Shown one piece after another: positions 46,117-64,000 of a stretch of 64,000 nucleotides of DNA (positions are counted from its first letter, which is position 1; every line of letters begins with the position of its first letter). The translations under genes and the position numbers were made by a program. The stretch is from a virus (lineage: Duplodnaviria > Heunggongvirae > Uroviricota > Caudoviricetes). The notes beneath the pieces were generated by a model. The model saw only the letters and a list, made by a program, of their open reading frames with translations, was not told where the DNA came from and searched no databases. The DNA is taken from the IMG/VR virus record IMGVR_UViG_3300037455_000543, positions 59,136-123,135 of that record; one strand, written 5' to 3'.

Positions 46117-46127
46117 GAGAAATAAAT

Positions 46128-47257: not shown

Positions 47258-47286
47258 TTTACAATTTGACATAAATTTACTATATT
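47258..47286 (+). promoter_or_regulatory. sigma70-like early promoter
   Basis: TTTACA-17-TATATT. Confidence 0.7.
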
Positions 47287-47310: not shown

Positions 47311-48435
47311 ATGAAATATCTTATTGGTGGCGCATTCGACCCGATTACACATGCTCATGAAGCAATTATTAAGGCAGTAAGCAAAAAGCTTCGCAAAGAT
47401 GACCAGCTGTTTGTTCTTGTTTCCAATACCGATGAAAAGAATTATAAGACGCCGGTTGACGAACGTATTGCAATGGTGAATGTAGCTTTACATGCAAGAA
47501 ATATCAAGGCCGAAATCTGTAAGCAGAATGTTCGTACTTATGAATACATTATGCATGCTTTCGGTCCTAATGATAAGGATATTACTATCGTTATCGGTGA
47601 AGACGAATGGAAAGCACTGGTCGACGGTAAGTGGAAGTTTGGTAAGCAACTATTGAATAACTATCAATTCCGTGTTGTTCCTCGTTCTAATAGCAATGGC
47701 GTTATTCCTGGTAAATATGCCGAATATGAAAATATGAAGGTTTTGCTCGGAGTCAATACCGAAGGTATTTCCAGTAGCGAAGCACGTAAGATTTTCTATC
47801 GTAATCCTGAATGTCATTACAAGGATGTGAAGCAGTATATCAGCAAGCCGGTTTTTGAATATATCCGTAAGGAAGGCGAACTGACTGATGATCGTGATAT
47901 GCCTATCAAGTCTAACAGTCTTTATGACCAGAACCCGACTAATTATGATGAACTTGAAAAGCAGTGGATTGAAAACTACAAGAAGCAAGGCTGGGGAAAG
48001 TTCGCAAATACTGTCGATATTGTCGGTATTTCCGGTGAAGAAGTTCTGTTGATTCGCCGTAAGAAACCGCCTTACATGAATTACTTCTGCACTCCTGGTG
48101 GATTCTTTAATCCGGTCGACTATATCAACAAGGAAACTAAACTTCCTGAAAAGGCTGATGCTTCTTTGGAACATGCCGCACAGCGTGAATTCCGTGAAGA
48201 AACTTCTCTTAATTTGCCGGTTGAAAAGTTTATTCAGATTAAGACGTATAGTCATATGTTTGACCCGCGTCTCCGTATCATCGATACTGCCGTTTCCGTC
48301 AAGGTAACTGGTAAGGAAAAGAAACTTGCCAAGGCTGGTGACGATGCTAAGGATGCTGCTTGGTTCAACATCAACGAATTGCCTAAGATGGGATTCCATC
48401 ACGAAAAGATTATTGAAGATTACCTTAATAAATAA
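47311..48435 (+). CDS. bifunctional NadD-like (N)MN adenylyltransferase / Nudix ADP-ribose pyrophosphatase
   Basis: GGAFDPITHAH, ISSSEAR (NadD-type); PGG...AAQREFREET Nudix box, DPR. Confidence 0.88.
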   Translation: MKYLIGGAFDPITHAHEAIIKAVSKKLRKDDQLFVLVSNTDEKNYKTPVDERIAMVNVALHARNIKAEICKQNVRTYEYIMHAFGPNDKDITIVIGEDEWKALVDGKWKFGKQLLNNYQFRVVPRSNSNGVIPGKYAEYENMKVLLGVNTEGISSSEARKIFYRNPECHYKDVKQYISKPVFEYIRKEGELTDDRDMPIKSNSLYDQNPTNYDELEKQWIENYKKQGWGKFANTVDIVGISGEEVLLIRRKKPPYMNYFCTPGGFFNPVDYINKETKLPEKADASLEHAAQREFREETSLNLPVEKFIQIKTYSHMFDPRLRIIDTAVSVKVTGKEKKLAKAGDDAKDAAWFNINELPKMGFHHEKIIEDYLNK

Positions 48436-48442
48436 GGTCATT

Positions 48443-48697
48443 ATGAAAAATATCATTAAACATGTTCGTGTGTGGGTAGCTACAATACTTATGTTCCCAT
48501 TCGTGGTAGTTGCCTGCTTAATATCGCTTCTAAGCTTAGTGTTGTTTTCACTTGCGATGGGGCTTATCAAGATTCCTCAAGTGATTGGCTATCTCATTGG
48601 TCCAAAAATCACCCCTGCGGATGGGAAGCGATACAAGAACTGGCTAGTGCGTTTCTTGGATTATATACTTAATAAAGCCGACTGGCCAAACAGATAA
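48443..48697 (+). CDS. membrane protein
   Basis: Long hydrophobic segment; start moved to ATG 48443. Confidence 0.65.
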   Translation: MKNIIKHVRVWVATILMFPFVVVACLISLLSLVLFSLAMGLIKIPQVIGYLIGPKITPADGKRYKNWLVRFLDYILNKADWPNR

Positions 48698-48716
48698 ATT
48701 CTGAATTTTCTTTAGC

Positions 48717-48752
48717 AAGACCGTAGAAACCTACGGTCTTTTATTATAAATA
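48717..48752 (+). promoter_or_regulatory. terminator followed by late promoter
   Basis: AAGACCGTAG-aaac-CTACGGTCTT-TT, then TATAAATA 48745-48752. Confidence 0.75.
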
Positions 48753-48779
48753 TAATAAAACTAACGTTAGAGGAAATTT

Positions 48780-50213
48780 ATGAATAAAATGAAACTTTTT
48801 GAAATGGCTAAGGCTGCTCAAGAACGTATGCTTGACAGACTTCCAGTTAATAAGAAATATATTTTCTTAATTGGCCGTTTTCTTGAATTGCATGGCGATC
48901 ATAATACAATGACTCGCCTCAAACAGTATCTTGAATCTCGTCTTTCTCCTGAAGAATTCAATATGGATAATATTTGCGGTGTATTTGGCGTAGATCCTGC
49001 TGCAAAACATACTGATGCTGGAACAAGAAACAATGAAAATTCTTTCGCAAGTGTTTTTCATGCACGTTTTGAAACACTCTATAATAACATGAAGAATTCC
49101 TTAGCTCGTTCAAAAGACGATATCGATAAGAACTATGTCGATAAGGTTCTCGATTTCTATTCTGCCGTTTATAATCATGAAAATCCGCAAGAAGCCTATG
49201 ATAGACTCAATATGGGTCCGGTAATTGACTGGATTAAAGATAACAAAACTGAAGCAGAAGAACGTTTTGGTCGTCGTTGGGATAAGATTCAGCGTGTTCT
49301 TGCACAATGGCTCGATGACAACTATGAAGGTTCTACCGCTCAAGCTGTAGCTAATTTCTGGGCATGGTGGCGTCAAACTAAAGATGAAAACCCGGATGCA
49401 TTAATGCCTATCGCATTAGCACAAAGATTGGCAAGAGTATTCTGTGAAGAAAATTCTCGTGAAGTTCTTGGTAATTTCCATAACTTCGTATTAAAGAAAG
49501 TATTGGTTACATTGACCGCTGATGACAACGGTGTTCCTGGTGCACTTAAGGCTAAAGTTGGTCAGGCTGTTCGTGACGGTGAAGAATTAGGCCGTATGAC
49601 TGATTACTGCCGTAACCTCGTCAATACCTGGTTCGGAACTGAAGAACCTACAGACGAACAACTTGAAGCAATGCGTAATCGTGGTAACGACGAAGGAAAT
49701 AATGCCAATGTTGTCAATGAAGAAAACTACGAAGATACAATAGGTGATATTCTTGACCCTGCTGATACTGCTAAGCTCTCTTATGCAATGGGTGCTATCC
49801 ATCCAGATGATATACCTGTTACACTTGGAGAACTTGCTGAACAATTAAAAGAGTATATAGATTATGATAAAGTTGGTAAAGTTGATCGTGCGACTGTAAA
49901 AGCTGCATTTATGCATTTCCGCGAGAAAGTAACTTCTAAGGATTTTAGAATCGGTAATGAAATTATTGTTAATGAAAGACTTATAAATTCTATCCAGGAA
50001 TTCTATAATAACTATAAAAATATTTTCAAAATCGGTCTTACTCAAAATGGTTTATTCAAAATCTTCGACGGCCTCTTGACCCATTATTACGAACAGCGTA
50101 CTAAGGAAATTGATGATGAATGGGGCAATAAACAATATGATGATGTTCCAGATGATTATGAACTTGAAGAAGCATTAAGAGTTCTTCATCAAAATGGCTT
50201 CATGATTGACTAA
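48780..50213 (+). CDS. late protein with C-terminal LEEA motif (putative capsid-internal protein)
   Basis: MNKMKLFE...; C-terminus ELEEALRVLHQNGFMID. Confidence 0.8.
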   Translation: MNKMKLFEMAKAAQERMLDRLPVNKKYIFLIGRFLELHGDHNTMTRLKQYLESRLSPEEFNMDNICGVFGVDPAAKHTDAGTRNNENSFASVFHARFETLYNNMKNSLARSKDDIDKNYVDKVLDFYSAVYNHENPQEAYDRLNMGPVIDWIKDNKTEAEERFGRRWDKIQRVLAQWLDDNYEGSTAQAVANFWAWWRQTKDENPDALMPIALAQRLARVFCEENSREVLGNFHNFVLKKVLVTLTADDNGVPGALKAKVGQAVRDGEELGRMTDYCRNLVNTWFGTEEPTDEQLEAMRNRGNDEGNNANVVNEENYEDTIGDILDPADTAKLSYAMGAIHPDDIPVTLGELAEQLKEYIDYDKVGKVDRATVKAAFMHFREKVTSKDFRIGNEIIVNERLINSIQEFYNNYKNIFKIGLTQNGLFKIFDGLLTHYYEQRTKEIDDEWGNKQYDDVPDDYELEEALRVLHQNGFMID

Positions 50214-50221
50214 ATAAAATT

Positions 50222-50290
50222 AAAGAGGATTTCAAAATCCTCTTTTTTAATAGTAATAAAAAGGCGATTTTTGAATCGCCTTATTTTTAT
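50222..50290. terminator. two hairpin terminators between convergent late genes
   Basis: AAAGAGGAT/ATCCTCTTT and AAGGCGATT/AATCGCCTT. Confidence 0.8.
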
Positions 50291-52023
50291 TAGATTTCTT
50301 CCCAGATTTCTATGAAGCTTCCGCCTTCATTAGGTCTGCGTTCATTGAAATCGCCTGGTTTATAATCGAAGACAATCGGATCTTCTGTATCATTCAGCTT
50401 TTCAAGTGCAGCTTCCTTAGTAGGTGCAGCAACAACAACGTTATCTGTGATTGCTGGATTTACATTACCGTTTTCGTCAACTGGGTGATAGTATACACGC
50501 CATTCCTTAGGTCTTGCCATACGGTGAACAGGTCCATTAATTCTTCTTGGTTCTCTGTTTCTCGGTCTTTCACCAGCCGGTTCTTCAGCCGGAGCTTCTT
50601 CAGCAGGTGCTTCTTCTCTTGCAGGAGCTTCTTCAGCAGGTTCTTCAGCCGGAGCTTCCTCACCAGCAGCAGGAATGTCAGCAAACAATTCTTGATATTC
50701 TGCTGGAAGCGGACCAGGTTTTTCATTATCGATTAAACCATGTCCCTGTCTAACGGCAATTTCTTTTTCTTCAGGTTCATTTGGTCTAATTTCAACGAAT
50801 GTAAAGACATTATCAAACTTTTCATCAATTTGATCTTTTACCCATTGAGAAAGACCATTTGCATTATTACAAATATATTGAACATAAATTTTTGCGGTAT
50901 CACCATCAAAATCAGCAGTCAAAGCAATCTTGTTACCTTCAGGGTCATAGTCATCAACCGCTGCTTTAAGTGATTCATATGCTTCTCTAATATTTGCAGT
51001 TTCTTCACCGCCTTCAGTATCAATTTCAACAGCAACCGTTCTTGTAGTTACTCGAACATTTACTTCTGCTGGAGCTTCAGCTGCCGGTCTTTCTTGTCTT
51101 GCTGGTGCTGCAGGTGCTGCAGGTTCTTCATGTGCAGGTTGTGCTTGCTGTGCAGGTTGACCGCCAAGTCTGTGACCACGTGGGTTCGGGTTATCGCCGC
51201 CTCTACCAGTCGGTTGCGGAGGAACAGCGCCATTAATCTTACCGTCTGCTGCAACTGTAATAGCATCCTGATGGTGAGTATCTGTAAGTATCTGGTTAAG
51301 AGAATTAATAAACGATCTTAACTTAGCTTTACCGCGTTCCGGTGCATCAGGAATGAAAGAAGCGAAACCATAAATGAACTTCTTAACCTTATCTGGGTCA
51401 CGTTCCAAAACGTGGTTTGATTTAGCAGATGCATAACAATTCTTAAATGCATTACATCTTGCAAAGGCTGCAGGGTCCATGCCGCGGAATTCATTTGCTT
51501 CGTTAAGCATAAAACCATGCTGACCAAGAACTTCAACTGCTTCTCTGATTTCCTCATCACTTGGATAATATTCATTATTCATATCATCATAAAGATCAGT
51601 TTCTTCATCAGAGTAATCATCAGGAATTCTGCCGTCGTCTTCAGGTTCTTCAAAACCATTAAGCTTTCCTAAATTTTCATCTTCCGGATAATCATCATAG
51701 TTTTCTTCGTCTTCTTGTTCTTCGTCGCCGATATAATCGTTTTCATTATCCAATCTTTGTGATTCTTCATAGATAGCGTCAACGAGCTTATCAACTGCCT
51801 TAGTTGGTTCTATGCCATCTTCATAATATGAATTAATGATATCGGCATACCATTCGTCTTGCATCAATTCATCAATAGACTGATAATTTTCATCGTCTTT
51901 ATATGTATCAGCCCATAAGTCATTTAACTTGGCTACGTAATCTTCAAACGAACCAGTTGCCTGTTCTTTCAAGACATACAAACCATGTTGCTTAATTATT
52001 GATTTAGCTTCATTAATTGTCAT
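50290..52023 (-). CDS. acidic low-complexity late protein with two LNEA-type motifs
   Basis: MTINEAKSIIKQHGLYVLKE; internal EIREAVEVLGQHGFMLNE; EEAPAEEP repeats. Confidence 0.85.
   Translation of the reverse strand: MTINEAKSIIKQHGLYVLKEQATGSFEDYVAKLNDLWADTYKDDENYQSIDELMQDEWYADIINSYYEDGIEPTKAVDKLVDAIYEESQRLDNENDYIGDEEQEDEENYDDYPEDENLGKLNGFEEPEDDGRIPDDYSDEETDLYDDMNNEYYPSDEEIREAVEVLGQHGFMLNEANEFRGMDPAAFARCNAFKNCYASAKSNHVLERDPDKVKKFIYGFASFIPDAPERGKAKLRSFINSLNQILTDTHHQDAITVAADGKINGAVPPQPTGRGGDNPNPRGHRLGGQPAQQAQPAHEEPAAPAAPARQERPAAEAPAEVNVRVTTRTVAVEIDTEGGEETANIREAYESLKAAVDDYDPEGNKIALTADFDGDTAKIYVQYICNNANGLSQWVKDQIDEKFDNVFTFVEIRPNEPEEKEIAVRQGHGLIDNEKPGPLPAEYQELFADIPAAGEEAPAEEPAEEAPAREEAPAEEAPAEEPAGERPRNREPRRINGPVHRMARPKEWRVYYHPVDENGNVNPAITDNVVVAAPTKEAALEKLNDTEDPIVFDYKPGDFNERRPNEGGSFIEIWEEI
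50575..50670 (-). repeat. tandem imperfect coding repeats (EEAPA/EEPA)
   Basis: Repeated ttcttcagc/ttcttcagccggagc units encoding EEAPAEEPAEEAPAREEAPAEEAPAEEPA. Confidence 0.8.
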
Positions 52024-52047
52024 AAATCCTCTAAATTACTTTTATAT

Positions 52048-52055
52048 TATTTATA
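52048..52055 (-). promoter_or_regulatory. late promoter TATAAATA
   Basis: Exact match upstream of 52023. Confidence 0.7.
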
Positions 52056-52069
52056 ACCAAAAATAAGAA

Positions 52070-52096
52070 AAATACCCTGTCAAACAAGGTATTTTA
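52070..52096. terminator. terminator hairpin
   Basis: AAAATACC...GGTATTTT. Confidence 0.6.
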
Positions 52097-52114
52097 GACT
52101 TAATTCTGAATTTC

Positions 52115-52729
52115 TTACTTTAATCTATTGGCCAAATCTCTGATATTTCCACCGTTCTTCAAGAAATCAGTTACACTCATACCGAGACCTGCCCTTCTAG
52201 CTATTTCTGTAGTGCGTTTCGGTGTTCCTCTTCTGTTTTTCAACGGATCTCTTTGACCAATAGCATTTCTATTAATACCTGCTGCCATATCACGGGCACG
52301 GGCATTAGATACTTCATATTTATCGTAATTTTCTTTCAACCAAGTAATAAGCTGGTCAAGGCCTCTTGTGAATGTATCAGTTGTTGTATAGAACGTATCA
52401 GCTTGTAAAACAACAGGTTTCTTGGAACCGTCTTTCAATGTCTTAATAAAAACTCTCGCATTACTGTTATCGCATACGGACAATGTTCCATCATTATTAA
52501 TCTTGATTTCAAACTGGTATGCGCCACGTCCGCCCTTACGTGTAAGCTGTATTTTATTTGCAGAACGACCATTTGTCGGAGACGGAATATAGATATCACC
52601 CATGTCACGTCTAATTCTATTACAAATCCAGTTTGTCATTGTCTGATTATATGCTTCATCAGCCTTTTCATTAATAATAAAATCTATAAGGCTATGCTTT
52701 TTTACGTTCTTATATACAATATTTGACAT
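52115..52729 (-). CDS. basic late protein
   Basis: IINE near N-terminus; Arg-rich C-terminus; TATAAATA at 52749-52756. Confidence 0.75.
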   Translation of the reverse strand: MSNIVYKNVKKHSLIDFIINEKADEAYNQTMTNWICNRIRRDMGDIYIPSPTNGRSANKIQLTRKGGRGAYQFEIKINNDGTLSVCDNSNARVFIKTLKDGSKKPVVLQADTFYTTTDTFTRGLDQLITWLKENYDKYEVSNARARDMAAGINRNAIGQRDPLKNRRGTPKRTTEIARRAGLGMSVTDFLKNGGNIRDLANRLK

Positions 52730-52748
52730 GAACCCTCTCTTTTTATTA

Positions 52749-52807
52749 TATTTATAAGTTCAAAATTAAAAATAATAGTTTACAATAATTCCTATTTTTA
52801 TTATATT
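52749..52807. promoter_or_regulatory. late (-) and early (+) divergent promoters
   Basis: TATAAATA on - 52749-52756; TTTACA(52779)-17-TATATT. Confidence 0.7.
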
Positions 52808-52813
52808 TGTTAT

Positions 52814-53599
52814 ATGACACAATTTGTTTTAATTACTGGCTATATGGGTTGTGGAAAGTCGACTGTTTCCAATATCCTACGTGACAAGTCATTTTACGTC
52901 CTCGATATGGATTCGACGATTAAATTCTTGTATAATAAAGACGTTGGAACAAAAGATCTTCTATGTCAAGTCTTTGGTCATAATGCACTTAAACCCTATG
53001 ACAAAGAACTGAGGACTTGCCTACCAAATATGGAATATCTGCGACAAGAAATGTTTAAACCAGAAAATGCAGAAAAACGCAAATTGTTAATGCACCGTAT
53101 TTTAAATGAACGACTACATCCAGGTATCTTTTTTGAAGGATATGATGATATTCATCGTAAACCGATTGTATTCGTTGAAGCTGCATTAACTGAATCTGTC
53201 CCGGAATTTATAGACATATTTGGAGTAAAGCATGTTATCAATGTTCAATGTGCTGACCATCTTAGACGACAACGTTTACATGAACGAGGAATGACTGATG
53301 AAGATATTGATACTCGTTCCAGACTTCAAAGTTGGCCAGTTTTGCCTAATAGTGTAATTACACACTCAATTACAAATGACCAATCAATAGACGTATTGAG
53401 ACAACAGATAGATACTCTACTTGGTGATAAAAATTTTATCTACGACACTACTAGGCTGGAATTCTTTAAAGAAGTACTTCCAAGAATTCCTACATATGCA
53501 GTCAATAATGCAATTTGTAGTGCGTTTAAATCGGCAAAGGGTTGTAAGAATTGTCCATTCCCATGTGAAGAATGGTTAAATAAAAAGGATAAGACATGA
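52814..53599 (+). CDS. coaE: dephospho-CoA kinase-like P-loop kinase with C-terminal Cys cluster
   Basis: ITGYMGCGKSTV, DMD, VEAA, RRQRLHERG...SRLQ; tail CxxxxxxxCxxCPFPC. Confidence 0.65.
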   Translation: MTQFVLITGYMGCGKSTVSNILRDKSFYVLDMDSTIKFLYNKDVGTKDLLCQVFGHNALKPYDKELRTCLPNMEYLRQEMFKPENAEKRKLLMHRILNERLHPGIFFEGYDDIHRKPIVFVEAALTESVPEFIDIFGVKHVINVQCADHLRRQRLHERGMTDEDIDTRSRLQSWPVLPNSVITHSITNDQSIDVLRQQIDTLLGDKNFIYDTTRLEFFKEVLPRIPTYAVNNAICSAFKSAKGCKNCPFPCEEWLNKKDKT

Positions 53600-53756
53600 A
53601 GTTCACGCTAAACATTCCATTTGAAAAACTTAAAATAACAGATGAAGAATTAGCGAAGAGACAGGAACTCATTAAAAAGCATACCGATGAAAATGGTAAG
53701 GTAGATTTATATCTTGTATTTAAAGATTTTTATGAATGGTTAAATAAAAAGGATAA
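53570..53756 (+). repeat. 23-bp perfect direct repeat pair
   Basis: GAATGGTTAAATAAAAAGGATAA at 53570-53592 and 53734-53756. Confidence 0.9.
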
Positions 53757-53775
53757 AAATGACGAATCAATTTGA
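53596..53775 (+). CDS. small hypothetical protein (59 aa) between direct repeats
   Basis: MKFTLNIPFEKLKITDEELAKRQELIKKHTDENGKVDLYLVFKDFYEWLNKKDKNDESI; ATGA overlap. Confidence 0.65.
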   Translation: MKFTLNIPFEKLKITDEELAKRQELIKKHTDENGKVDLYLVFKDFYEWLNKKDKNDESI

Positions 53776-55096
53776 ATTCATTAAAAATTATATGCAGAGC
53801 TTGTCAGTTTGTAAGACTGAACGAGAATGGGTGCAAGAAGCAGAAACAATCGCTGTCCAGCATGGATTCTCAAAGTTCAATGCTAATACCAAATATGAAC
53901 CGGGCGATAAGGTTTATTTTGTAAATCGCAAGAAAAACTTCGCTGCATTCGTATATGGTAAATATAATATTTCTGCAAACTTGCTCGGTGCTCATATCGA
54001 CTCTCCGAGAATCGACGTGAAGCAACAGCCTTTATATGAATCTGATGGCGTTGCATATTTCGATACTCAATATTATGGTGGTATCAAGAAGTATCAGTGG
54101 ACTACTATTCCGCTCGCAATTCATGGTGTAGTATATAAGGCAAATGGTGATGAAATTAGCGTAAATATTGGCGAAAAGCCGAATGACCCTGTTTTCTGCA
54201 TTACTGACCTTCTTCCTCATCTTGGTCGAACAGCAATGAGCAAGGCTACTGCCGAAGAATTTATCAAGGGCGAAAAACTCGATATTATTGTCGGAACTAC
54301 GCCGATAACGACTAATAACAATGATACTCTCAAGCTTGATGAAAAGGAACCTGTAAAGAAATTCGTTCTTAACTATCTTAAAGAAAACTGGTTAATCGAA
54401 GACGAAGAAGATTTCTGTTCTGCCGAACTTGAAATTGTTCCTGCTGGCCCTGCAAGATTTAGCGGTCTTGACAAGTCTCTTGTTGCTGGTTACGGTCAGG
54501 ATGATAGAGTATGCGCATATACCTCTTTAATGGCTCTTATGGACCTCCAGGACGTCCCGGAACATACGGCAGGTGTAATACTAGTAGACAAGGAAGAAAT
54601 TGGTTCCTGCTGCGCTACAGGCGCGAAATCTCGCTGGTTTGAAGATGTTCTTAGAATGGTTTTCGATTCTCCGAATGAAGGAATGTTTGCAACAAGTCTC
54701 TATAATACCAAAATGCTTTCTTCCGACGTAACTGCTGCTTTTGACCCGCTTTACGGTGATGCCTATGATAAGAAGTCATCTGCAAAGTTTGGAAAGGGAA
54801 TTATGTTCTCCAAGTATAACGGCGGTCGAGGCAAGTCCGGTGGCGCTGATGCAAATCCGGAATTTATTGCCTATGTTCGCGGTTTGATGAAGGAAAATAA
54901 CTGCAAGTATCAGTTTGATTCTATGGGCAAGGTTGACCAAGGCGGTGGCGGAACTATTGCATCTATGGTTTCTGATTTGAATATCAATGTGCTTGATGCT
55001 GGTGTTCCTGTTCTCAATATGCACTCTCCGATGGAACTCGCTCATGTCGATGACATCTATGCTGCATATCTTGCATATATGGCATTCATTAAGTAA
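53759..55096 (+). CDS. M18 family aminopeptidase
   Basis: GAHIDSPR, YYGGIKKYQW, GQDDRVC, DKEEIGS, SSDV, GGGTI, MHSP. Confidence 0.92.
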   Translation: MTNQFEFIKNYMQSLSVCKTEREWVQEAETIAVQHGFSKFNANTKYEPGDKVYFVNRKKNFAAFVYGKYNISANLLGAHIDSPRIDVKQQPLYESDGVAYFDTQYYGGIKKYQWTTIPLAIHGVVYKANGDEISVNIGEKPNDPVFCITDLLPHLGRTAMSKATAEEFIKGEKLDIIVGTTPITTNNNDTLKLDEKEPVKKFVLNYLKENWLIEDEEDFCSAELEIVPAGPARFSGLDKSLVAGYGQDDRVCAYTSLMALMDLQDVPEHTAGVILVDKEEIGSCCATGAKSRWFEDVLRMVFDSPNEGMFATSLYNTKMLSSDVTAAFDPLYGDAYDKKSSAKFGKGIMFSKYNGGRGKSGGADANPEFIAYVRGLMKENNCKYQFDSMGKVDQGGGGTIASMVSDLNINVLDAGVPVLNMHSPMELAHVDDIYAAYLAYMAFIK

Positions 55097-55117
55097 AATA
55101 TTTTTAACATTTAATAT

Positions 55118-55159
55118 AAACTGAAACATATTTACAAGTGTTTCAGTTTTTTCTATATT
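55118..55159 (+). promoter_or_regulatory. terminator/early-promoter module
   Basis: AAACTGAAACA-tatttacaag-TGTTTCAGTTT; TTTACA(55131) in loop-17-TATATT. Confidence 0.75.
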
Positions 55160-55165
55160 TAGACT

Positions 55166-56158: not shown

Positions 56159-56161
56159 TTT

Positions 56162-56917
56162 ATGAAAACTATAAGACTTTGCACATTTGAAACAAACTCG
56201 TCTTCAATGCATGCGATTATTATTCCGGAACGCTCTTTTAATGCACATAAGCATTTGAAAGATATTGTATTCCAATACAATATGGATTTTAGTGAAAGAG
56301 CATTGTATATCCGTAATAAGCCGGAAGAAAAAGCGTCTTATGTATTTCAGCTTATCGTCGGGCAAATTAATTCGTATTTTGTTCCGGTTACAAAAGATGA
56401 CGTTGAAATCCCTGGTGCTGTAACTCATAATGAAAGAGTAATCAAGATGTTTACCGACTGGATGGAACAGTTCAAGGCAGAAGTTCTTGAATGGGAAAAG
56501 ATCAATGTCTCCTTCGGCGGATATGTTATTTCTCGTGAATATACCAATTACAAGGGTGAAGTCGTAAGACAATATCATATTCAAGAACCTGAAGGAACTT
56601 ATGCATCCACTGGTTGTTATGGCCACAAGGGTGTAAACGGTGTTTTGCTTTCACGCCTGTTTGACCGTTTTGACAAGGCAGTAGAAAATATCGATTCTCC
56701 TGACTGGGATAAGCCAGAAGAAATCGAAAAGCGTAACAAAAATTGGGACGCATCCATGTTCTATATTATCAATTTTGTTTTTGACCCGAATGCTGTTATT
56801 ATTCAGTATACTGATGAATACAGTGATGAAGGTCTTGTTGAAATGAAACAGAAAATTAGAGAATATATGGAAATGAATGATTACCGTTGTAATGTTATTT
56901 GGCCTATTGGAGGCTAG
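56162..56917 (+). CDS. FETNSSS-motif protein 4
   Basis: MKTIRLCTFETNSSSMH; 3 nt after radical SAM stop. Confidence 0.85.
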   Translation: MKTIRLCTFETNSSSMHAIIIPERSFNAHKHLKDIVFQYNMDFSERALYIRNKPEEKASYVFQLIVGQINSYFVPVTKDDVEIPGAVTHNERVIKMFTDWMEQFKAEVLEWEKINVSFGGYVISREYTNYKGEVVRQYHIQEPEGTYASTGCYGHKGVNGVLLSRLFDRFDKAVENIDSPDWDKPEEIEKRNKNWDASMFYIINFVFDPNAVIIQYTDEYSDEGLVEMKQKIREYMEMNDYRCNVIWPIGG

Positions 56918-56919
56918 TA

Positions 56920-57642
56920 GTGAAAATCTATAGTAAATTCCAGGATTATTATGATTCTGCTTTGGGTTCTTTTATAGAATCCGAAGTAGTTTATAATCGT
57001 TCTCAAGAAACTGACATTATTTCTTTAATGGATATTCCTGACCTTGGCGAGGAATTCTTTCCGAAGTTTACGGATCATGAAGACTCGTCTTTTCCGGATC
57101 GTCCACAAAATAATATTGTAATCCTTGTCGGTTTCTGTGGAAAATACTATTATGGTTTACATTACGATTACTTTCCTGGAATTGCAAACGATAGTGATTA
57201 TTTTAACTATTGCAAAGAAGCGCATAAGTATATTTCTTTCGAAACATTTAAAGACTATAGAACTCATCCATGGCAAGGTTTATCTGATAAATTTAAATTT
57301 AAGTACAGTCGGTATCTTGATTTAAAAAATCCAGAAGAAACCGATTGGTGGAAAGATGAGGCCTTCATTAAATATGGTCCTGTATTCTCTGTGTTTTATC
57401 CATTACATCATAAGTATGCAAAAGAACCTGCGAAAATCAGGATTGTAAAAAATCCATGTCTCAAAGATTTAAACTTTGTTCAAGTAATGGATCCTTTTAC
57501 ATGTCTTTATAATATAAATGAATGGTTAGATACACATGCAAGGCCTGATGATGCCATCGTTCCTGTTGGCGATGATATCACTCGTTTACAGGCATATGGT
57601 TTTGACAAGAAAACATCTTTTAGGAAAGCAAAAGAAAAATAA
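56920..57642 (+). CDS. conserved phage protein (KIxSKFxDYYD family)
   Basis: GTG start after GGAGG; KIYSKFQDYYD, VGFCGK, NPCLKDLNF, GFDKKTSFR. Confidence 0.75.
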   Translation: MKIYSKFQDYYDSALGSFIESEVVYNRSQETDIISLMDIPDLGEEFFPKFTDHEDSSFPDRPQNNIVILVGFCGKYYYGLHYDYFPGIANDSDYFNYCKEAHKYISFETFKDYRTHPWQGLSDKFKFKYSRYLDLKNPEETDWWKDEAFIKYGPVFSVFYPLHHKYAKEPAKIRIVKNPCLKDLNFVQVMDPFTCLYNINEWLDTHARPDDAIVPVGDDITRLQAYGFDKKTSFRKAKEK

Positions 57643-57691
57643 CGACTTTTAGAAAATTATTTTCATATATAGAATAGAAAGGTTGAGAACA

Positions 57692-57766
57692 ATGATTAAT
57701 TTTAACTATAACAGAATTTCATCATCAAGCGAATCGCACGAGCGGTTTTGCTTTGTTATAGTGTAA
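57692..57766 (+). CDS. possible 24-aa peptide
   Basis: MINFNYNRISSSSESHERFCFVIV after GAAAGG SD-like site. Confidence 0.35.
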   Translation: MINFNYNRISSSSESHERFCFVIV

Positions 57767-57794
57767 ATTAAATTTTACAAAATTTAACGATTAT

Positions 57795-57829
57795 AGACCG
57801 CTTACAAAAGCGGTCTTTTTTTCTATATT
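57795..57829 (+). promoter_or_regulatory. terminator/early-promoter module
   Basis: AGACCGCTT-acaa-AAGCGGTCT+T run; CTTACA(57801)-17-TATATT. Confidence 0.7.
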
Positions 57830-57856
57830 TAACAGTGAAAATTAAAAGGTTCAGTA

Positions 57857-58033
57857 ATGAGAAAAAAGAAAACATTAAAAATTCAAACCTTTACTAATCC
57901 TGAAAATATAGGATTGTATCTGGAAACAAATCAGATTACTCGTGACGACGTTTTGACCGTGACTGAGAGCGTGAAAGAAATAGAATCAACGCACGCAAAA
58001 ATTCAACAATTTACTTTATTCTACTGGGCTTAA
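57857..58033 (+). CDS. small hypothetical protein (58 aa)
   Basis: MRKKKTLKIQTFTNPENIGLYLETNQITRDDVLTV...; AAAGG SD. Confidence 0.6.
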   Translation: MRKKKTLKIQTFTNPENIGLYLETNQITRDDVLTVTESVKEIESTHAKIQQFTLFYWA

Positions 58034-58057
58034 AAAATTTAAAAAGGAAAAATAAAA

Positions 58058-58648
58058 ATGAACAAGAAACTCTTAATCCTCATCGACTGTCAGAACGATT
58101 TTATTACTGGCACTCTTGCAAATCCTCGCGCCGAAGCAAAGATTGCAAACATCGTAAAGAAAGTAAAGGAACACGACGGTATCGTTATCGCAACTCACGA
58201 TACTCACTTTACCAAGCTTCAGGTTGAATCTGCTTGGCCTCCTGCTGAAGGAAAGGCATATGAAGATACTATGGAAGGTCAGATTCTCAAGACTGTCCAC
58301 TGTATCAAGCTTACTGAAGGTTGGGAAATTCAAAAGGATATTCTCGCAGCTTGTCATGAAAAGAATGGCACCAATGGTCCGACTAAGTTCCACTGCATTG
58401 ACAAGTATACGTTCGGTTGGGATGGTTGGAAGGAATACCTCAAGGCCTTCGATTTTGACGAAATTGAACTTTGTGGTTTTGTCGCTGGTATTTGCGTAGA
58501 TTCCAATGCAACTATTCTTCGTGCACTTTTCCCGAACATGAAGATTACTGTTGATGCTGCTTGCACTGCTGGTTTCGGACCTGACGATGAAAAGGCTGCT
58601 TACACCTGCATGAAGATGAAAGAAATTGACGTTATTAACGAGGACTAA
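58058..58648 (+). CDS. pncA: nicotinamidase (isochorismatase family)
   Basis: ILIDCQNDF, ATHDTH, VHC, DKYTFG, CGFVAGICV. Confidence 0.88.
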   Translation: MNKKLLILIDCQNDFITGTLANPRAEAKIANIVKKVKEHDGIVIATHDTHFTKLQVESAWPPAEGKAYEDTMEGQILKTVHCIKLTEGWEIQKDILAACHEKNGTNGPTKFHCIDKYTFGWDGWKEYLKAFDFDEIELCGFVAGICVDSNATILRALFPNMKITVDAACTAGFGPDDEKAAYTCMKMKEIDVINED

Positions 58649-58649
58649 T

Positions 58650-58967
58650 ATGACCGTTGAAATTAAGAAATATAAAAAGAAACCGGTTCAAGTCGAAGCT
58701 GTTCAGATTCCGGATCTCGATGATGCTGAAAATGTAGCGGATATTCTTGACTGGGGTGACGGTCATATCCGTTATGATGATGAAACTTATCCGATGTCAG
58801 GACCTGTTCTTGGTATCGAAACAAAGTCAGGTCATCATTATGCCATCCCGGGTGACTGGATTATTAAAGGAATCGATGGTACGTTTTATGCAACTACTAA
58901 TGAAACTTTCCAGAAACTTTATGAACAGGATAATGGTGATTCAGGCATGGGATGTATCACATGGTAG
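58650..58967 (+). CDS. conserved phage protein (KKPVxVEA/PGDWII family)
   Basis: KKKPVQVEAVQ...PGDWIIKGIDGTFY. Confidence 0.75.
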   Translation: MTVEIKKYKKKPVQVEAVQIPDLDDAENVADILDWGDGHIRYDDETYPMSGPVLGIETKSGHHYAIPGDWIIKGIDGTFYATTNETFQKLYEQDNGDSGMGCITW

Positions 58968-59149
58968 ATTGGGAAGGCTTAACACCTAATAGTATTCGTG
59001 ATTACTATGATGCATATCGAAAAAGAAAAGATTCTATCGGATATAATAAATGGAAATACGAATATAGCAAATTACCTGAAGACTTAACACTCTTCGAAGA
59101 TTTTAAAAACAAAAACAAAACAAACACAAACAATAAAGAGGAAAATAAT

Positions 59150-59788
59150 ATGTTTGATTTTAACTTTGGCAATATGTTTAACGGTATGTTTGGCAAGCTC
59201 GAAAAGGGCAAGTGTGCATTCGCTATGAATGGCGGTATCGCAGTCAAGACATCCAATGGCTTCAAGACTTACAATGTCAAGAAGCAGCGTCTCACCAACG
59301 TCACTAACTTCTGTTTTGACGGTGCAGACTTCTTCTTCGTCCTTCCGACCGCTAAGGTCGCTGTCGGTGACGTTATTCTCGTCGGTGGCAAGCCGAAGTG
59401 CGTTATCGAAGTTGGTAAGGCATCGATTAAGGTTATCGACTATGAAAATAGCGAAATCCGTGAAATCGTTCCGGAACGTCACATCTTCATGGGCGCTACC
59501 GTGTTCTACGGCAAGATCACCAGCCCATTCGGTAATGGTATCGCTGGTAAGGGCAAGGGTATCATGGCCAAGATGATGCAGCTCATGATGATGAAGAGCA
59601 TGATGGGTGGCAATGGCAGTGATGGTAATGGCCTGATGCAGATGATGATGATGCAGAATATGTTCGGCGGTGCTGCAACTGACGGCAATATGTTCGAAAA
59701 CATGTTCGACATCCAGATTGATGAAGACGTTGCCGGTGCTGTAAATCCGGACGACGGCGATGAAGACGAAGATACAGAGGAAAACTAA
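59150..59788 (+). CDS. Met/Gly-rich hypothetical protein upstream of vWA gene
   Basis: GAGG SD at ATG 59150; MMQLMMMKSMMGG..MQMMMMQNMFGG; acidic tail. Confidence 0.8.
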   Translation: MFDFNFGNMFNGMFGKLEKGKCAFAMNGGIAVKTSNGFKTYNVKKQRLTNVTNFCFDGADFFFVLPTAKVAVGDVILVGGKPKCVIEVGKASIKVIDYENSEIREIVPERHIFMGATVFYGKITSPFGNGIAGKGKGIMAKMMQLMMMKSMMGGNGSDGNGLMQMMMMQNMFGGAATDGNMFENMFDIQIDEDVAGAVNPDDGDEDEDTEEN

Positions 59789-59802
59789 AAGGAGGTTAAC
59801 CT

Positions 59803-60690
59803 ATGGGTGGCGGAAGCTTTGATTATTCCAGCTATAAATCTTATTCCAGAAGCTGCGGTAAGGTCCTTGATTCTCGTGGTTATGTAACTAAGGGTCAGAC
59901 ATTTGATCGTTCCTACATGGCAAGTGAACTTGATCCGAAGAATGTTATTCGTGAATGTTGCAATTCCAAGGAACATCCGAATACACTTCCGGTCATTCTC
60001 GCACTTGACGTTACCGGTTCTATGGGTACGGCTTGTAAGAGAACTGCAGAAGCACTTGGTCCTATCGTATTGAATTTGCTCGAAAAGTATAAGGATCGCG
60101 ATATTGAATTCCTTATCATGGGTATCGGTGACGTTGAATGCGACTCCTGCCCGATTCAGGCATCTCAGTTCGAATCTGATGTCCGTATCTCTAAGGATAT
60201 TGACAAGATTTATATGGAACACGGCGGCGGTGGAAACCAGTATGAATCCTATTCTGCTGCATGGTATTTCGGTCTCAATCAGACCAAGCTTGATTGCTAT
60301 GACAAGCAAGGTCGAAAGGGTATCATTATTACCATGGGTGATGAACCGTTAAATCCGTATCTCGAACGTGCAGGTCTTAACGAAGCAACTGGTCATTCTA
60401 ACCAGTCTCGTGTAGATACCAAGGATCTCTATGCTAAGGCTAAGGATAAGTTCGATATTTATCATATCGCTGTAGATGACAATGCTACATGCTATAGAAG
60501 CTATGCAAACCAGATTGAAAAGACTTTCGGTCAGCTTCTTGGCGATAATCTGAAGGTTGCATCGATTAATACCTTGCCTACCATTATCGAAGACTGCATT
60601 AAGCAGACAATCGAACATAATGGTGGTGGTACTACTACTGAAGCACCTAAGAAGACGCAGCTTAACGAAAACGGCGAAATTACTTGGTAA
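59803..60690 (+). CDS. von Willebrand factor A domain protein
   Basis: MGGGSF start, LDVTGSMG (MIDAS), GGGNQYESY, MGDEP. Confidence 0.88.
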   Translation: MGGGSFDYSSYKSYSRSCGKVLDSRGYVTKGQTFDRSYMASELDPKNVIRECCNSKEHPNTLPVILALDVTGSMGTACKRTAEALGPIVLNLLEKYKDRDIEFLIMGIGDVECDSCPIQASQFESDVRISKDIDKIYMEHGGGGNQYESYSAAWYFGLNQTKLDCYDKQGRKGIIITMGDEPLNPYLERAGLNEATGHSNQSRVDTKDLYAKAKDKFDIYHIAVDDNATCYRSYANQIEKTFGQLLGDNLKVASINTLPTIIEDCIKQTIEHNGGGTTTEAPKKTQLNENGEITW

Positions 60691-60694
60691 CTTT

Positions 60695-60729
60695 AAGGGG
60701 TTGAAAAACCCCTTTATTTTTTCTATATT
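60695..60729 (+). promoter_or_regulatory. terminator/early-promoter module
   Basis: AAGGGGTT-gaaa-AACCCCTT+T run; TTGAAA(60701)-17-TATATT. Confidence 0.7.
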
Positions 60730-60738
60730 TAAATTTGT

Positions 60739-61863
60739 ATGACGATTGGTAGAATTATAGTAGGTAGTTCCTACGGCGATGAAGGTAAAGGTACTGTTAC
60801 AGCATTCTATACAAAGAAAGCTGTCGGTAAGGTATTGAATGTTCTAACGAATGGTGGCGCACAAAGAGGACATTCAGTAATATCTGATAATGGCGATTTT
60901 ACTTTCAAACATTTCGGTTCTGGAACATGCTACGGTGCAGACAGTTATTTTTCTCAATTCTTTATCCTTAATCCGATGCAATTCGACAAGGAAAGAAAAC
61001 AGCTGTCTGACAAGCTACCATTCTTTAATAATCTTAATTTTTATCGTCATGAAGACTGTATGTGGTCTACTCCGTTTGACCAGATGTTTAACCTCGCTAT
61101 TGAAGTAAGCAGAGGAAAAGATAGACATGGTTCCTGTGGAATGGGTATCTGGGAAACGGTATTAAGATACAGTAAGATGAAAACATATACACTTGATGAA
61201 TTCTGCTATCTTCCTAAAGAATTCAAAGTTAAGTATCTTAAAGATATTAAACTGTATTTTGAAAACAGGGGTGTAAAACTTCCTAAAGAACTTGTAGAAC
61301 CATGGAACAGTGATTTTCTTATTGAACACTTTATCCAGGATTGCCATACATTAAGATTTATGGCTAAACCTGTAAAGTCGATTACCGAAATCTATCATGA
61401 CTATCAAGAAGTAATCTGTGAAAACGGACAAGGATTGTTATTAAATTCCAATCCGTTCGATGACCATACTACTCCTAGCAATACTGGTTCTCATGATGGT
61501 ATGGCTATTCTTGCAAGTGGACTTAATCTTCCGAATGACGCTATCACGGTTCATTATGTGACAAGACCTTATCTTACAAGACACGGTGACGGCTATCTAA
61601 TTGGTGAAACCGACAAGAATCACATTGCTAGTTCTGTTCCTGAAGATAGAACGAACCATTATAATGATACACAGGGGCATTTTAGATATGCCGCTTTGGA
61701 TATCAATGATTTGGCTAGCAGAATTGGATTTGACTTCATGAGACCGTATGCTGGTGATTTCAAGGTAGAAGTAACGCATTGTGATGAAATGGATCGCGTT
61801 ACTGAATTTGAAAGGCATTTCGGTAAACAAAGAATTCATACATTCGAGTCTCCGAAGGTTTAA
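60739..61863 (+). CDS. purA: divergent adenylosuccinate synthetase-like protein
   Basis: GDEGKG, GGAQRGH, ENGQGLLL, YVTRPYLTRHG; Asp-binding loop atypical. Confidence 0.75.
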   Translation: MTIGRIIVGSSYGDEGKGTVTAFYTKKAVGKVLNVLTNGGAQRGHSVISDNGDFTFKHFGSGTCYGADSYFSQFFILNPMQFDKERKQLSDKLPFFNNLNFYRHEDCMWSTPFDQMFNLAIEVSRGKDRHGSCGMGIWETVLRYSKMKTYTLDEFCYLPKEFKVKYLKDIKLYFENRGVKLPKELVEPWNSDFLIEHFIQDCHTLRFMAKPVKSITEIYHDYQEVICENGQGLLLNSNPFDDHTTPSNTGSHDGMAILASGLNLPNDAITVHYVTRPYLTRHGDGYLIGETDKNHIASSVPEDRTNHYNDTQGHFRYAALDINDLASRIGFDFMRPYAGDFKVEVTHCDEMDRVTEFERHFGKQRIHTFESPKV

Positions 61864-61867
61864 TATA

Positions 61868-61903
61868 AAAGGGGTTTACAAAAACCCTTTTATTTTTTAT
61901 ATT
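61868..61903 (+). promoter_or_regulatory. terminator/early-promoter module
   Basis: AAAGGGGTTT-ac-AAAAACCCTTTT; TTTACA(61875)-17-TATATT. Confidence 0.75.
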
Positions 61904-61930
61904 TGATTAAAATTAAAAAGGATATTAAAA

Positions 61931-63157
61931 ATGACAAAACATCTTCCCCAAATTATCACGCATTTGACCGACAATGACTTCTATAAGTACACTATGGGTC
62001 AAATGTTTGTTCATCAGTTCCACGATATGAAGGTTGAATGGACCTACAAGAACAGAGATCCTGAACGTAAGTTTACTCGTGAGATGATTGATGAAATCAA
62101 TTATCAGATTGACCTTTACTCCAAGCTCCGCTATACTCCATGGGAACTTGAACACTTCGGTAAGATTGATTTCATGAACCATGACTATGTTGGTTTCTTG
62201 AAGCGTTATAGTATTGACCGTAATGAAATCACTTGCGTGTATGACGAAAAGATTCAGCAGCCGGAAATTCACTTCCGTGGTTATAACATCGACGTTTCTT
62301 ATCATGAAGTGCCGGTTATGTCCATTGTTTCTGAAGTCTGGTTCCGTATGACCTATACTCCGGAGGAACAGGCTAAGATTATCGAAGATGCAAAGCAGCG
62401 CTTCATTGAAAAGGTTGATAAGCTCATCAAGGGTGAAATCAAGATTGGCGCATTTAGCGAATTCGGTACTCGCCGTAGATTCTGTAAGGAATTCCAAGAA
62501 TGGGCACTTCGCTATATCAGCCAGTTCCAGTTCAAGGGTACTAAGTTTGTCGGTACTTCTAACGTGTATTTCAGCTTCCTGTTCGGAACTAAGCCGATTG
62601 GAACTATGGCTCACGAAGCCATCGAGCTCGTTGGTCAGGGTCTGCCGATTCATAACCCGGCTTACTCCAACCACTACATGATGAAGCACTGGATTAAGGA
62701 ATACGGTGTTAAGAATGGTATCTATCTTACCGACTGTATCACCACTGATTGCTTCCTCAAGGACTTTACGACTGAATATGCAACGTTGTTCAGCGGCGTA
62801 AGACATGACTCGGGCGATCCGATTGCCTGGGGCGAAAAGATGCTTGCTCACTATATGAAGGTTGGCGTTCCATATGCAAACAAGACTCTCTTGTTCTCGG
62901 ATAGCTTGGACTTCCAGCGTGCAGAAGTTATCTATCAGCGTTTTGCACTCCGTTGTAATGTTGCTTTCGGTATCGGTACCTGGTTGCTCAATGATACTGG
63001 TTGGTTCAAGCCGATGAACCAGGTTATCAAGCTGACCGAAGTAAACGGAATTCCGGTTTGTAAGATCAGCGATGCTGCTGGTAAGTTCATGGGTAAGAGC
63101 GAAGAATATCGCGATTATCTCCAGCGTGCAATCGATTGGCGCGTAAATCACGACTAA
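61931..63157 (+). CDS. pncB: nicotinate phosphoribosyltransferase
   Basis: DNDFYKYTM, EFGTRRR, GTSNV, GTMAHE, RHDSGDP, FSDSL, FGIGT, KISD. Confidence 0.95.
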   Translation: MTKHLPQIITHLTDNDFYKYTMGQMFVHQFHDMKVEWTYKNRDPERKFTREMIDEINYQIDLYSKLRYTPWELEHFGKIDFMNHDYVGFLKRYSIDRNEITCVYDEKIQQPEIHFRGYNIDVSYHEVPVMSIVSEVWFRMTYTPEEQAKIIEDAKQRFIEKVDKLIKGEIKIGAFSEFGTRRRFCKEFQEWALRYISQFQFKGTKFVGTSNVYFSFLFGTKPIGTMAHEAIELVGQGLPIHNPAYSNHYMMKHWIKEYGVKNGIYLTDCITTDCFLKDFTTEYATLFSGVRHDSGDPIAWGEKMLAHYMKVGVPYANKTLLFSDSLDFQRAEVIYQRFALRCNVAFGIGTWLLNDTGWFKPMNQVIKLTEVNGIPVCKISDAAGKFMGKSEEYRDYLQRAIDWRVNHD

Positions 63158-63165
63158 TAATTAAG

Positions 63166-63197
63166 TAAACCCTATTTTGGGGATAGGGTTTATTTTT
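63166..63197 (+). terminator. intrinsic terminator
   Basis: TAAACCCTAT...ATAGGGTTTA+T run after pncB. Confidence 0.75.
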
Positions 63198-63207
63198 AGG
63201 ATTTAAT

Positions 63208-63345
63208 ATGAAAAAGTTACTTAAAATTTTCGGCACAATTCTTGGTATTACCGTTGTTGGTGGGTTAGTTTATAAAGAACGTGAAACCATTGCCGATTTA
63301 CAAAAAAGACTAGTAGAAATGAGACATTTTACGGTTAAGAAGTAA
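63208..63345 (+). CDS. small membrane protein (45 aa)
   Basis: MKKLLKIFGTILGITVVGGLVYKERE...; AGGA SD. Confidence 0.6.
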   Translation: MKKLLKIFGTILGITVVGGLVYKERETIADLQKRLVEMRHFTVKK

Positions 63346-63418
63346 ATATACTTTTACATTTCGACCGTGAAATGTTTTCTATATTTGTACTATAAAGTTT
63401 AAAAGAAAAGGATAATAT

Positions 63419-64000
63419 ATGAAAGAATTGACAGAAAACGTAGTTAAGTGGACCAAGGAAACCTTTGACAAGCTCGGCAAGACTGATGCTGTATTAGGAA
63501 TTTCTGGTGGTAAGGATTCTAGTGTAGTTGCGGCTATTTGTGTCGCTGCACTTGGTAAGGAACATGTTCACGGTGTTTTACTTCCATGCGGTATTCAGAA
63601 GGATATTTCTGACTCCTATAAGCTGGTTGACCATCTTGGTATCGATTATGATGTTCAGGATATTGAAACTCTTGTAAAAGAATCTCTTGCTCTTGTTCCT
63701 GGTGCTGACAAGTCTTATGATGCAAAGACTAACGTAGGTGCAAGACTTCGTACTAACCAGATTATGGTTACTGCACAGACAAATAACTGGTTGATGGCTA
63801 ATACTTGTAACAGGTCGGAAAATTGCTGCGGATATGCTACGTTATGGGGTGATTCGTGTGGTTCTTTTGCTCCAGTTGATATGTTAACAACTGAAGAAAT
63901 TATTGAAATCGGTGATGACCTTGGTCTTCCGTATGAACTTACTCATAAGACTCCTATTGATGGCCTTCAGCCTTTAACTGATGAAGATAAACTTGGTTTT
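63419..64000 (+). CDS. nadE: NH3-dependent NAD+ synthetase (truncated by window edge)
   Basis: Manually translated: LGISGGKDSSV, NVGARLR, NRSE..GYATLWGD, KTPIDGL; not in ORF track. Confidence 0.93.
   Translation, partial: MKELTENVVKWTKETFDKLGKTDAVLGISGGKDSSVVAAICVAALGKEHVHGVLLPCGIQKDISDSYKLVDHLGIDYDVQDIETLVKESLALVPGADKSYDAKTNVGARLRTNQIMVTAQTNNWLMANTCNRSENCCGYATLWGDSCGSFAPVDMLTTEEIIEIGDDLGLPYELTHKTPIDGLQPLTDEDKLGF

Follow-up and report, generated by a model that had tools for sequence, protein, structure and literature searches.

A predicted four-gene deamidating NAD+ salvage route with a NadD-type–Nudix fusion protein in a 424-kb jumbo phage

Four NAD genes in a complete phage genome

The stretch of DNA analysed here (64,000 nucleotides, hereafter the window) comprises bases 59,136-123,135 of the 424,163-bp IMG/VR record IMGVR_UViG_3300037455_000543, a single virus genome with direct terminal repeat (DTR) ends, 35% G+C and a CheckV completeness of 100%. 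It carries four genes whose predicted products, a nicotinamidase (PncA), a nicotinate phosphoribosyltransferase (PncB), a NadD-type adenylyltransferase fused to a Nudix hydrolase and an NAD+ synthetase (NadE), would together form a deamidating route from nicotinamide to NAD+. These genes had been located in the initial annotation from the sequence alone, and domain scans, curated-model scans and, for nadE, readout from the full genome confirm that all of them are present at those positions and intact. They are organised as separate units dispersed over 17 kb:

47311-48435, plus strand: fusion of two predicted domains, a NadD-type nicotinate-mononucleotide adenylyltransferase (residues 1-190) and a Nudix domain of the ADP-ribose pyrophosphatase type (residues ~205-374); 374 amino acids; PF01467 and PF00293
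58058-58648, plus strand: PncA-like nicotinamidase of the isochorismatase fold; 196 amino acids; PF00857
61931-63157, plus strand: PncB, nicotinate phosphoribosyltransferase; 408 amino acids; PF04095 and PF17767, both NAPRTase domains
63419-64000, plus strand, running to window-equivalent position 64165 (165 nt past the window): NadE, NH3-dependent NAD+ synthetase; 248 amino acids; PF02540 at 135 bits

A DNA search of the phage collection with positions 57800-64000 as the query gave no match.

PncB scores above two curated NCBIfam cut-offs (NF003704, 403.8 bits against 379; TIGR01514, 336 bits against 269.55) and is the sole NAPRTase-family gene in the genome. NadE, even as truncated by the window, exceeds the TIGR00552 cut-off (131.2 versus 63.65 bits) and matches phrog_11189, annotated as NAD synthetase, at 137 bits. 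The full-length protein read from the genome has the SGGKDS ATP-binding PP-loop and consists of a single domain with no glutaminase domain, features that place it with the NH3-type synthetases.

The PncA-like protein belongs to a family of about 200 members, found on huge-phage-sized contigs. Across 19 aligned homologues, residues D10, D48, H50, H81, C82, K102 and K116 are invariant and C146 is nearly so. The catalytic Asp-Lys-Cys triad is thus represented by D10, K102 (with K116 as a second invariant lysine) and C146, and K102 aligns with K94 of the Pyrococcus horikoshii enzyme 1ilw. Likewise invariant is the Asp/His/His metal site (D48, H50, H81) that separates nicotinamidases from other isochorismatase-like hydrolases, which aligns with the DxH and HC motifs of 1ilw and 2h0r. 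When the profile was compared with solved chains, the nicotinamidases 1ilw (P. horikoshii) and 2h0r (yeast) ranked at the top, and most of the 11 matches were nicotinamidases. The AlphaFold (AF2) model, with a predicted local distance difference test (pLDDT) score of 88.6, points in the same direction: its top Foldseek matches are the nicotinamidases 5zn8 (B. subtilis; template modelling score, TM, 0.75/0.80), 1ilw, 3s2s and 3o90.

The fusion protein is a member of a family with more than 660 homologues of identical two-domain architecture, many of them on contigs of 200-460 kb. Pfam assigns a cytidylyltransferase-like domain (CTP_transf_like) to residues 4-160 and a NUDIX domain to residues 232-370. 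In an alignment of 17 homologues sharing 48-94% identity, the nucleotidyltransferase motifs are invariant at T13/H16 (T-H-A-H in place of HxGH) and at S154-S156/R159 (I-S-S-S-E-A-R in place of ISSTxxR), as are the Nudix catalytic residues R292, E293, E296 and E297 (REx2EE). The protein shows the (H/T)xGH and ISSTxxR motifs together with the fold by which NadD enzymes are recognised. Its AF2 model (pLDDT 87, predicted TM-score 0.81) was searched with Foldseek both whole and by domain. The whole chain matches the NadM-Nudix structures 2r5w, 2qjt and 2qjo (Francisella, Synechocystis), and phrog_395 likewise matches over the full length. Taken alone, the N-terminal domain fits best on the NadD-type structures of S. 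aureus (2h2a, TM 0.76 by target), B. anthracis (3e27) and P. falciparum (5llt), and the Nudix half matches the ADP-ribose-binding Nudix proteins NrtR (3gz8, with ADP-ribose), NudC and NUDT9; its closest matches are slr0787 (2qjo), NrtR (3gz8) and NUDT9. By sequence against solved chains, the N-terminal domain retrieves chains of NadD and phosphopantetheine adenylyltransferase (PPAT) only, with no NadM chain among the matches, and the best of them is the P. falciparum nicotinate mononucleotide (NaMN) adenylyltransferase 5llt, which has the same unusual T-x-A-H form. The NCBIfam PRK05379 NadM-Nudix models, for their part, match the Nudix half only. Because the N-terminal domain resembles NadD in both fold and sequence, and because the NadM-Nudix models cover nothing but the Nudix half, we regard the fusion as a NadD-type domain followed by an ADP-ribose pyrophosphatase-like domain of the NadM type. 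Its predicted substrates are NaMN, rather than nicotinamide mononucleotide (NMN), and ADP-ribose, which the Nudix domain most likely splits into AMP and ribose-5-phosphate.

An Atlas feature search linked the N-terminal domain to automatically named 'PPAT family' clusters. This assignment was set aside since a true CoaD is encoded elsewhere in the phage and since NadD models, solved NadD chains and the fold provide a better fit. The genome also encodes a second, stand-alone MutT-like Nudix hydrolase of 147 amino acids (G000:C1 131.9-132.4 kb; L005:1495-1938).

Transcription units, linkage and gene replacement

A promoter-like motif, T[TC][TG]A[CA]A-N16-18-TATATT, occurs in 121 copies genome-wide, against about 7 expected per strand (~8-fold enrichment), and 79 of these copies lie no more than 60 nt upstream of an open reading frame (ORF) start. 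Sites of this motif class and other elements around the NAD genes are as follows:

47258-47286, plus strand: promoter-like TTTACA-N17-TATATT before the fusion gene, from the consensus scan
57801-57829, plus strand: promoter-like CTTACA-N17-TATATT, from the consensus scan, overlapping a terminator hairpin (57795-57816) and heading orf57857, pncA and downstream ORFs
57857-58033, plus strand: ORF of 58 amino acids, first gene of the pncA unit, with a 93% identical copy before pncA in the related record G004
61875-61903, plus strand: promoter-like TTTACA-N17-TATATT before pncB, from the consensus scan, with its -35 hexamer in the loop of hairpin 61868-61891
63166-63192, plus strand: palindromic hairpin with a T-run behind it, which probably serves pncB as a terminator (assigned to the minus strand by the scan, but with a T-run that can be read on the plus strand)
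63208-63345, plus strand: ORF of 45 amino acids in the interval from pncB to nadE, hydrophobic at its N-terminus and of uncertain membership
63353-63385, plus strand: TTTACA and TATATT hexamers with a non-canonical 21-nt spacer before nadE, read from the sequence and not called by the consensus scan

Early-type promoters had initially been ascribed to the first three genes. As to position, the motif does stand directly before the fusion gene and pncB, and pncA is reached from the promoter at 57801 through the 58-amino-acid ORF, for which a Pfam scan gave no match. As to timing, early expression is suggested by the sigma70-like form of the motif, and no late-type TATAAATA box precedes any of the four NAD genes. 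The same motif class is also found before the PurA-like, CoaE-like and radical SAM genes. At 55118-55159, 57795-57829, 60695-60729 and 61868-61903 it forms part of terminator-promoter cassettes, in which the -35 hexamer (TTTACA or TTGAAA) is placed within or next to the loop of a G+C-rich hairpin whose T-run continues into TATATT, a layout whereby one unit would end and the next start within ~35 nt.

The fusion, PncA, one PncB and NadE are all present in four related IMG/VR records, namely G001 (411 kb), G002 (415 kb, DTR), and G004 and G005 (165 kb and 137 kb), each of which has a single NAPRTase-family gene that is PncB-like. The sole record without the four genes, G003, ends exactly before the PncA slot. 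In L038, a 220-kb ENA contig from a distant relative whose fusion is 54% identical, the genes for the fusion, PncA and NadE are adjacent, separated by gaps of 10 nt and 1 nt, and L037 carries PncA and PncB within 10 kb of the fusion. This conserved linkage argues that the fusion makes nicotinate adenine dinucleotide (NaAD). In this regard, NadE would be useful only if NaAD is made, so its constant presence together with the lack of any Nampt is the strongest reason at hand for taking NaMN as the substrate of the fusion.

PncB has followed a different course from its neighbours. It is 88% identical in G001, but the form that occupies the same neighbourhood in G002, G004 and L037 shares only 36% identity with it, against 79-92% for NadE. 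The window PncB is ~50% identical to PncB of Lachnospiraceae/Butyrivibrio (Clostridia) and nearer to these than to the other phage form, which shares 38-40% identity with the Lachnospiraceae/Butyrivibrio proteins; moreover, its G+C content at third codon positions is the highest of the set (0.52 versus a genome mean of 0.32). The occurrence of two PncB forms in one neighbourhood of closely related phages looks like xenologous replacement. Since PncB would have been exchanged while its neighbourhood was kept, the function appears to have been retained through gene replacement, which in turn argues for selection on the pathway. PncA and the fusion can also part ways, as in one relative in which PncA is 98% identical while the fusion is 41% identical. 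To judge from these comparisons, the NAD genes have the character of exchangeable cassettes.

In most relatives (G002, G004, L012, L013, L039), the positions around the fusion are kept by a histidine-phosphatase-fold protein and M16 peptidase pair-domain protein (window 45508-47255) and by an M18 aminopeptidase (53759-55096). In L015 (IMGVR_UViG_2236876025_000239) the fusion gene lies ~4 kb upstream of the histidine phosphatase-M16 pair instead of after M16, which is directly followed by the o48780 homologue; this arrangement suggests that the fusion gene itself is a movable cassette. The histidine phosphatase at 45508 was considered as an ADPR-1''-phosphate phosphatase extending NARP1, an idea that was dropped because that enzyme is a Macro-domain protein (10.64898/2026.01.28.702374).

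Between pncA and pncB lies a trio of genes (58952-61863). The first product (58952-59788) has no assigned family, the second (59803-60690; phrog_2971) is vWA-like, with an Atlas score of 0.97 to viral 'VWA domain' clusters, and the third (60739-61863) is a highly divergent PurA-like protein. The trio moves as a block in relatives, being found beside PncA in G004 and L039 and beside NadE in G001. Despite a phrog_1211 label of PurZ, the PurA-like protein is not called so here, its best solved chains being PurA at 36 bits and the NCBIfam PurZ model reaching 21 bits.

A putative NAD+ salvage route and its alternatives

The complete genome allows the enzymatic context of the four genes to be defined. 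The initial annotation saw no PRPP (phosphoribosyl pyrophosphate) synthetase in the window, and the rest of the genome agrees with it: neither a PRPP synthetase nor an Adps-like protein of the Prs family is found anywhere in the 424,163 bp. Nampt, Namat, PnuC (PF04973) and PncC/CinA are likewise absent from the genome, and no second NAPRTase-family gene accompanies pncB. Besides the fusion, the cytidylyltransferase fold is represented by CoaD and by a 'TagD-like' gene (so labelled in the initial annotation). The phage does encode a minimal NAD+-dependent DNA ligase of 382 amino acids (adenylation domain PF01653 at 117 bits and OB domain PF03120; minus strand, G000:C1 ~291.6-292.7 kb, L029:1234-2382), and a search of the whole genome for an ATP-dependent ligase (PF01068) found none. 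As the only DNA ligase detected is NAD+-dependent, the phage has an NAD+ need of its own.

Together, these findings make it probable, in our view, that the phage encodes a working deamidating salvage route of the Preiss-Handler type that keeps the NAD+ pool up during infection. In such a route, PncA would hydrolyse nicotinamide to nicotinate, which PncB would convert to NaMN at the expense of host PRPP and ATP; the NadD-type domain of the fusion would adenylylate NaMN to NaAD, and NadE would amidate NaAD to NAD+ using ammonia and ATP. The fused Nudix domain would in parallel process ADP-ribose. Expressed from separate transcription units under one sigma70-like promoter class, these enzymes could maintain the NAD+ pool whatever lowers NAD+, meeting the demand of the phage ligase and, by the same route, buffering NADase-type defences. 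This reading builds on intact genes, matching folds, catalytic residues kept across homologues and a linkage kept across relatives; the substrates, the early timing and the physiological purpose are predictions. The succession from nicotinamide through nicotinate, NaMN and NaAD to NAD+, with an ADP-ribose-type Nudix at its side, had been anticipated in the initial annotation and finds support in the motifs and folds, in curated models and in the linkage kept among relatives. Its further suggestion that the phage recycles both products of NAD+ cleavage fares less well: the Nudix domain is indeed of the ADP-ribose type, but turning ribose-5-phosphate into PRPP requires host Prs, which the phage lacks, so that recycling of both products would be only partly phage-encoded.

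Several observations weigh against this reading. The best NCBIfam match of the fusion, TIGR00482 (NadD), reaches 70.6 bits and thus falls below the cut-off of 112.45; its HxGH motif reads T-H-A-H, and the first Glu of its Nudix box is out of register because of a 14-residue insert. For a preference of NaMN over NMN, support comes from context rather than from the sequence, namely the co-occurrence of NadE and PncB, the lack of Nampt and the adjacency seen in L038. PncA scores far under the curated NCBIfam cut-off (NF008623, 34 versus 174 bits) and is therefore regarded as a divergent member of the nicotinamidases. In addition, the four genes form no operon here, unrelated genes lying between them over a distance of 17 kb, PRPP must be supplied by the host, and the NAD+-dependent ligase releases NMN, which a route without PncC cannot reuse unless the fusion accepts it.

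The alternative that survives best overlaps with the salvage route and concerns its purpose. According to it, the four genes would constitute a dedicated counter-defence, a genuine fourth NARP-like pathway in which the nicotinamide that Thoeris, SIR2, TIR or DSR-type NADases release is turned back into NAD+, with the Nudix domain clearing or recycling ADP-ribose, or possibly removing immune signals derived from it, at the place where NAD+ is made. Phage NAD+ rebuilding is known to defeat such defences from NARP1-3 (10.1101/2024.02.11.579819; PMC13464706), and the inclusion of PncA makes the present route start at nicotinamide, which is the defence product. The physical fusion of an ADP-ribose-type Nudix, the sigma70-like promoters and the retention of the set through gene replacement are in agreement with this possibility. 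On the other hand, no link is seen here between the NAD genes and a defence system, the genes lie apart whereas NARP operons are compact, and each NAD+ would cost 3 ATP plus host PRPP. The phage's own NAD+ demand also speaks for a broader function, as do two further genes, a CoaE-like dephospho-CoA kinase (window 52814-53599, below the curated cut-off) and CoaD (G000:C1 ~410.2-410.8 kb, L003:1444-1986; 118.7 versus 103.3 bits), which correspond to the last two steps of coenzyme A synthesis and suggest general cofactor provisioning. Both roles are plausible, then: a supply role is supported by the NAD+ demand and the CoaD and CoaE-like genes, and a counter-defence role also fits the nicotinamide start and the type of the Nudix domain. 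We hold the dedicated counter-defence as a tentative proposal that falls short of the general salvage function in likelihood. Were it true, the NadD-type-Nudix fusion would represent a parallel to NatV that arose independently to serve the nicotinate branch.

A second alternative is that the fusion is a NatV-like NMN adenylyltransferase that mainly recycles NMN from the phage ligase, with no dedicated step in the deamidated route. Its two-domain architecture is that of NadM-Nudix and NatV, as the whole-chain fold and the full-length phrog_395 match reflect; the ligase releases NMN while PncC is absent, and NMN is accepted weakly by many NadD enzymes. Against this idea, the N-terminal domain matches NadD and not NadM by hidden Markov model, by sequence to solved chains and by fold. 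NadE, moreover, would be pointless without NaAD and yet is always present, lying beside the fusion and PncA in L038. Finally, neither the genome nor its four relatives encode a Nampt, versus the presence of NadV in every surveyed NadM-bearing phage (PMC9503650). We therefore consider the NatV-like reading unlikely. Least credible of all, to the point that we give it very little weight, is that the genes are unrelated metabolic passengers from bacteria without a coordinated function, or that the true substrate of the isochorismatase-fold protein is not nicotinamide: the placement of the genes as separate units among peptidases, a radical SAM enzyme and a vWA/PurA-like cassette, and the low curated score of PncA, would suit it, but all four genes co-occur in every sufficiently long relative, some of them side by side in two relatives, and the nicotinamidase-specific metal ligands are conserved.

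Comparison with known NAD+ pathways

NAD+ is a main battleground of phages and bacterial immunity, and three phage rebuilding pathways are proven, none of which proceeds via the deamidated branch. NARP1 (Adps and Namat) and NARP2 (Nampt and Nmnat) were described in 10.1101/2024.02.11.579819, and NARP3 (PnuC and NadR) in PMC13464706. The salvage route proposed here shares with them the phage-encoded rebuilding of NAD+ from salvage precursors; it differs in having none of their defining enzymes, in taking four steps through deamidated intermediates and in that its link to defence is only predicted. That NARP1 and NARP2 use other enzymes had been noted correctly from the start, and the enzymes of NARP3 are absent as well, so that all three pathways are excluded by the lack of their defining enzymes from a complete genome (DTR, CheckV 100%). 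In the literature library searched, we found no paper testing a phage Preiss-Handler route against a defence and no pathway named 'NARP4'. The locus offers a clean, conserved four-gene candidate, in which the fusion mirrors NatV from the NadD lineage and PncB function would have been kept through replacement.

With regard to cellular pathways, the same four activities, PncA, PncB, NadD and NadE, make up bacterial Preiss-Handler salvage, for instance in Clostridia. Unlike it, the route described here is phage-borne, its NadD is fused to a Nudix domain, and PncA and the fusion come from divergent families so far found almost only on huge-phage-sized contigs. The arrangement of an adenylyltransferase followed by a Nudix domain is shared with NadM-Nudix (Synechocystis slr0787, 2qjo; Francisella, 2qjt/2r5w) and with NatV of Vibrio phage KVP40; REx2EE is intact, and the Nudix domain is the part that matches these proteins most closely in sequence and fold. 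In contrast to them, the N-terminal domain is of the NadD type, with no NadM domain recognised. NatV acts in NARP2 together with NadV, and a survey of completely sequenced viral proteomes found NadV in every phage bearing NadM (PMC9503650), whereas the fusion described here occurs without NadV/Nampt and in the company of PncB, NadE and PncA.

The closest precedent is found among the gut phages studied by Li et al. (Microbiome 2024; PMC11662467), who described complete salvage or Preiss-Handler routes in 174 of 668 gastrointestinal jumbo phages and termed these 'NAD-jumbo phages'. Their examples include the pncB-nadD-nadE cluster of Kuafu_71; phage pncA is mentioned, NAD+-dependent ligases are noted, and a counter-defence role is suggested, with no experiments. 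The novelty implied by the initial annotation is accordingly not upheld, since complete Preiss-Handler sets with a suggested counter-defence role had been published in 2024 (PMC11662467). A NAD-jumbo phage exceeds 200 kb and has every gene of at least one salvage or Preiss-Handler route. The present phage, with 424,163 bp bounded by DTRs and with pncB, a nadD-type gene, nadE and also pncA, is a member of this published kind, which it resembles further as an animal-gut phage with NAD+-consuming enzymes such as an NAD+-dependent ligase. Host assignment sets it apart from the Kuafu clade, to which Bacteroidota hosts were assigned (PMC11662467). The hints here are of a Fibrobacter host, and the related phage contig L039:1-209 carries a gene with a Fibrobacter succinogenes major paralogous domain (PF09603, 'Fib_succ_major'), which fits such a host. 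As a discovery the locus adds little, the pathway class being already published for gut jumbo phages. Its genes are dispersed over 17 kb, unlike the tight cluster of Kuafu_71, and its adenylyltransferase is fused to a Nudix domain, a word absent from the main text of PMC11662467; it is this NadD-type-Nudix fusion, together with the apparent replacement of PncB, that makes the comparison most instructive.

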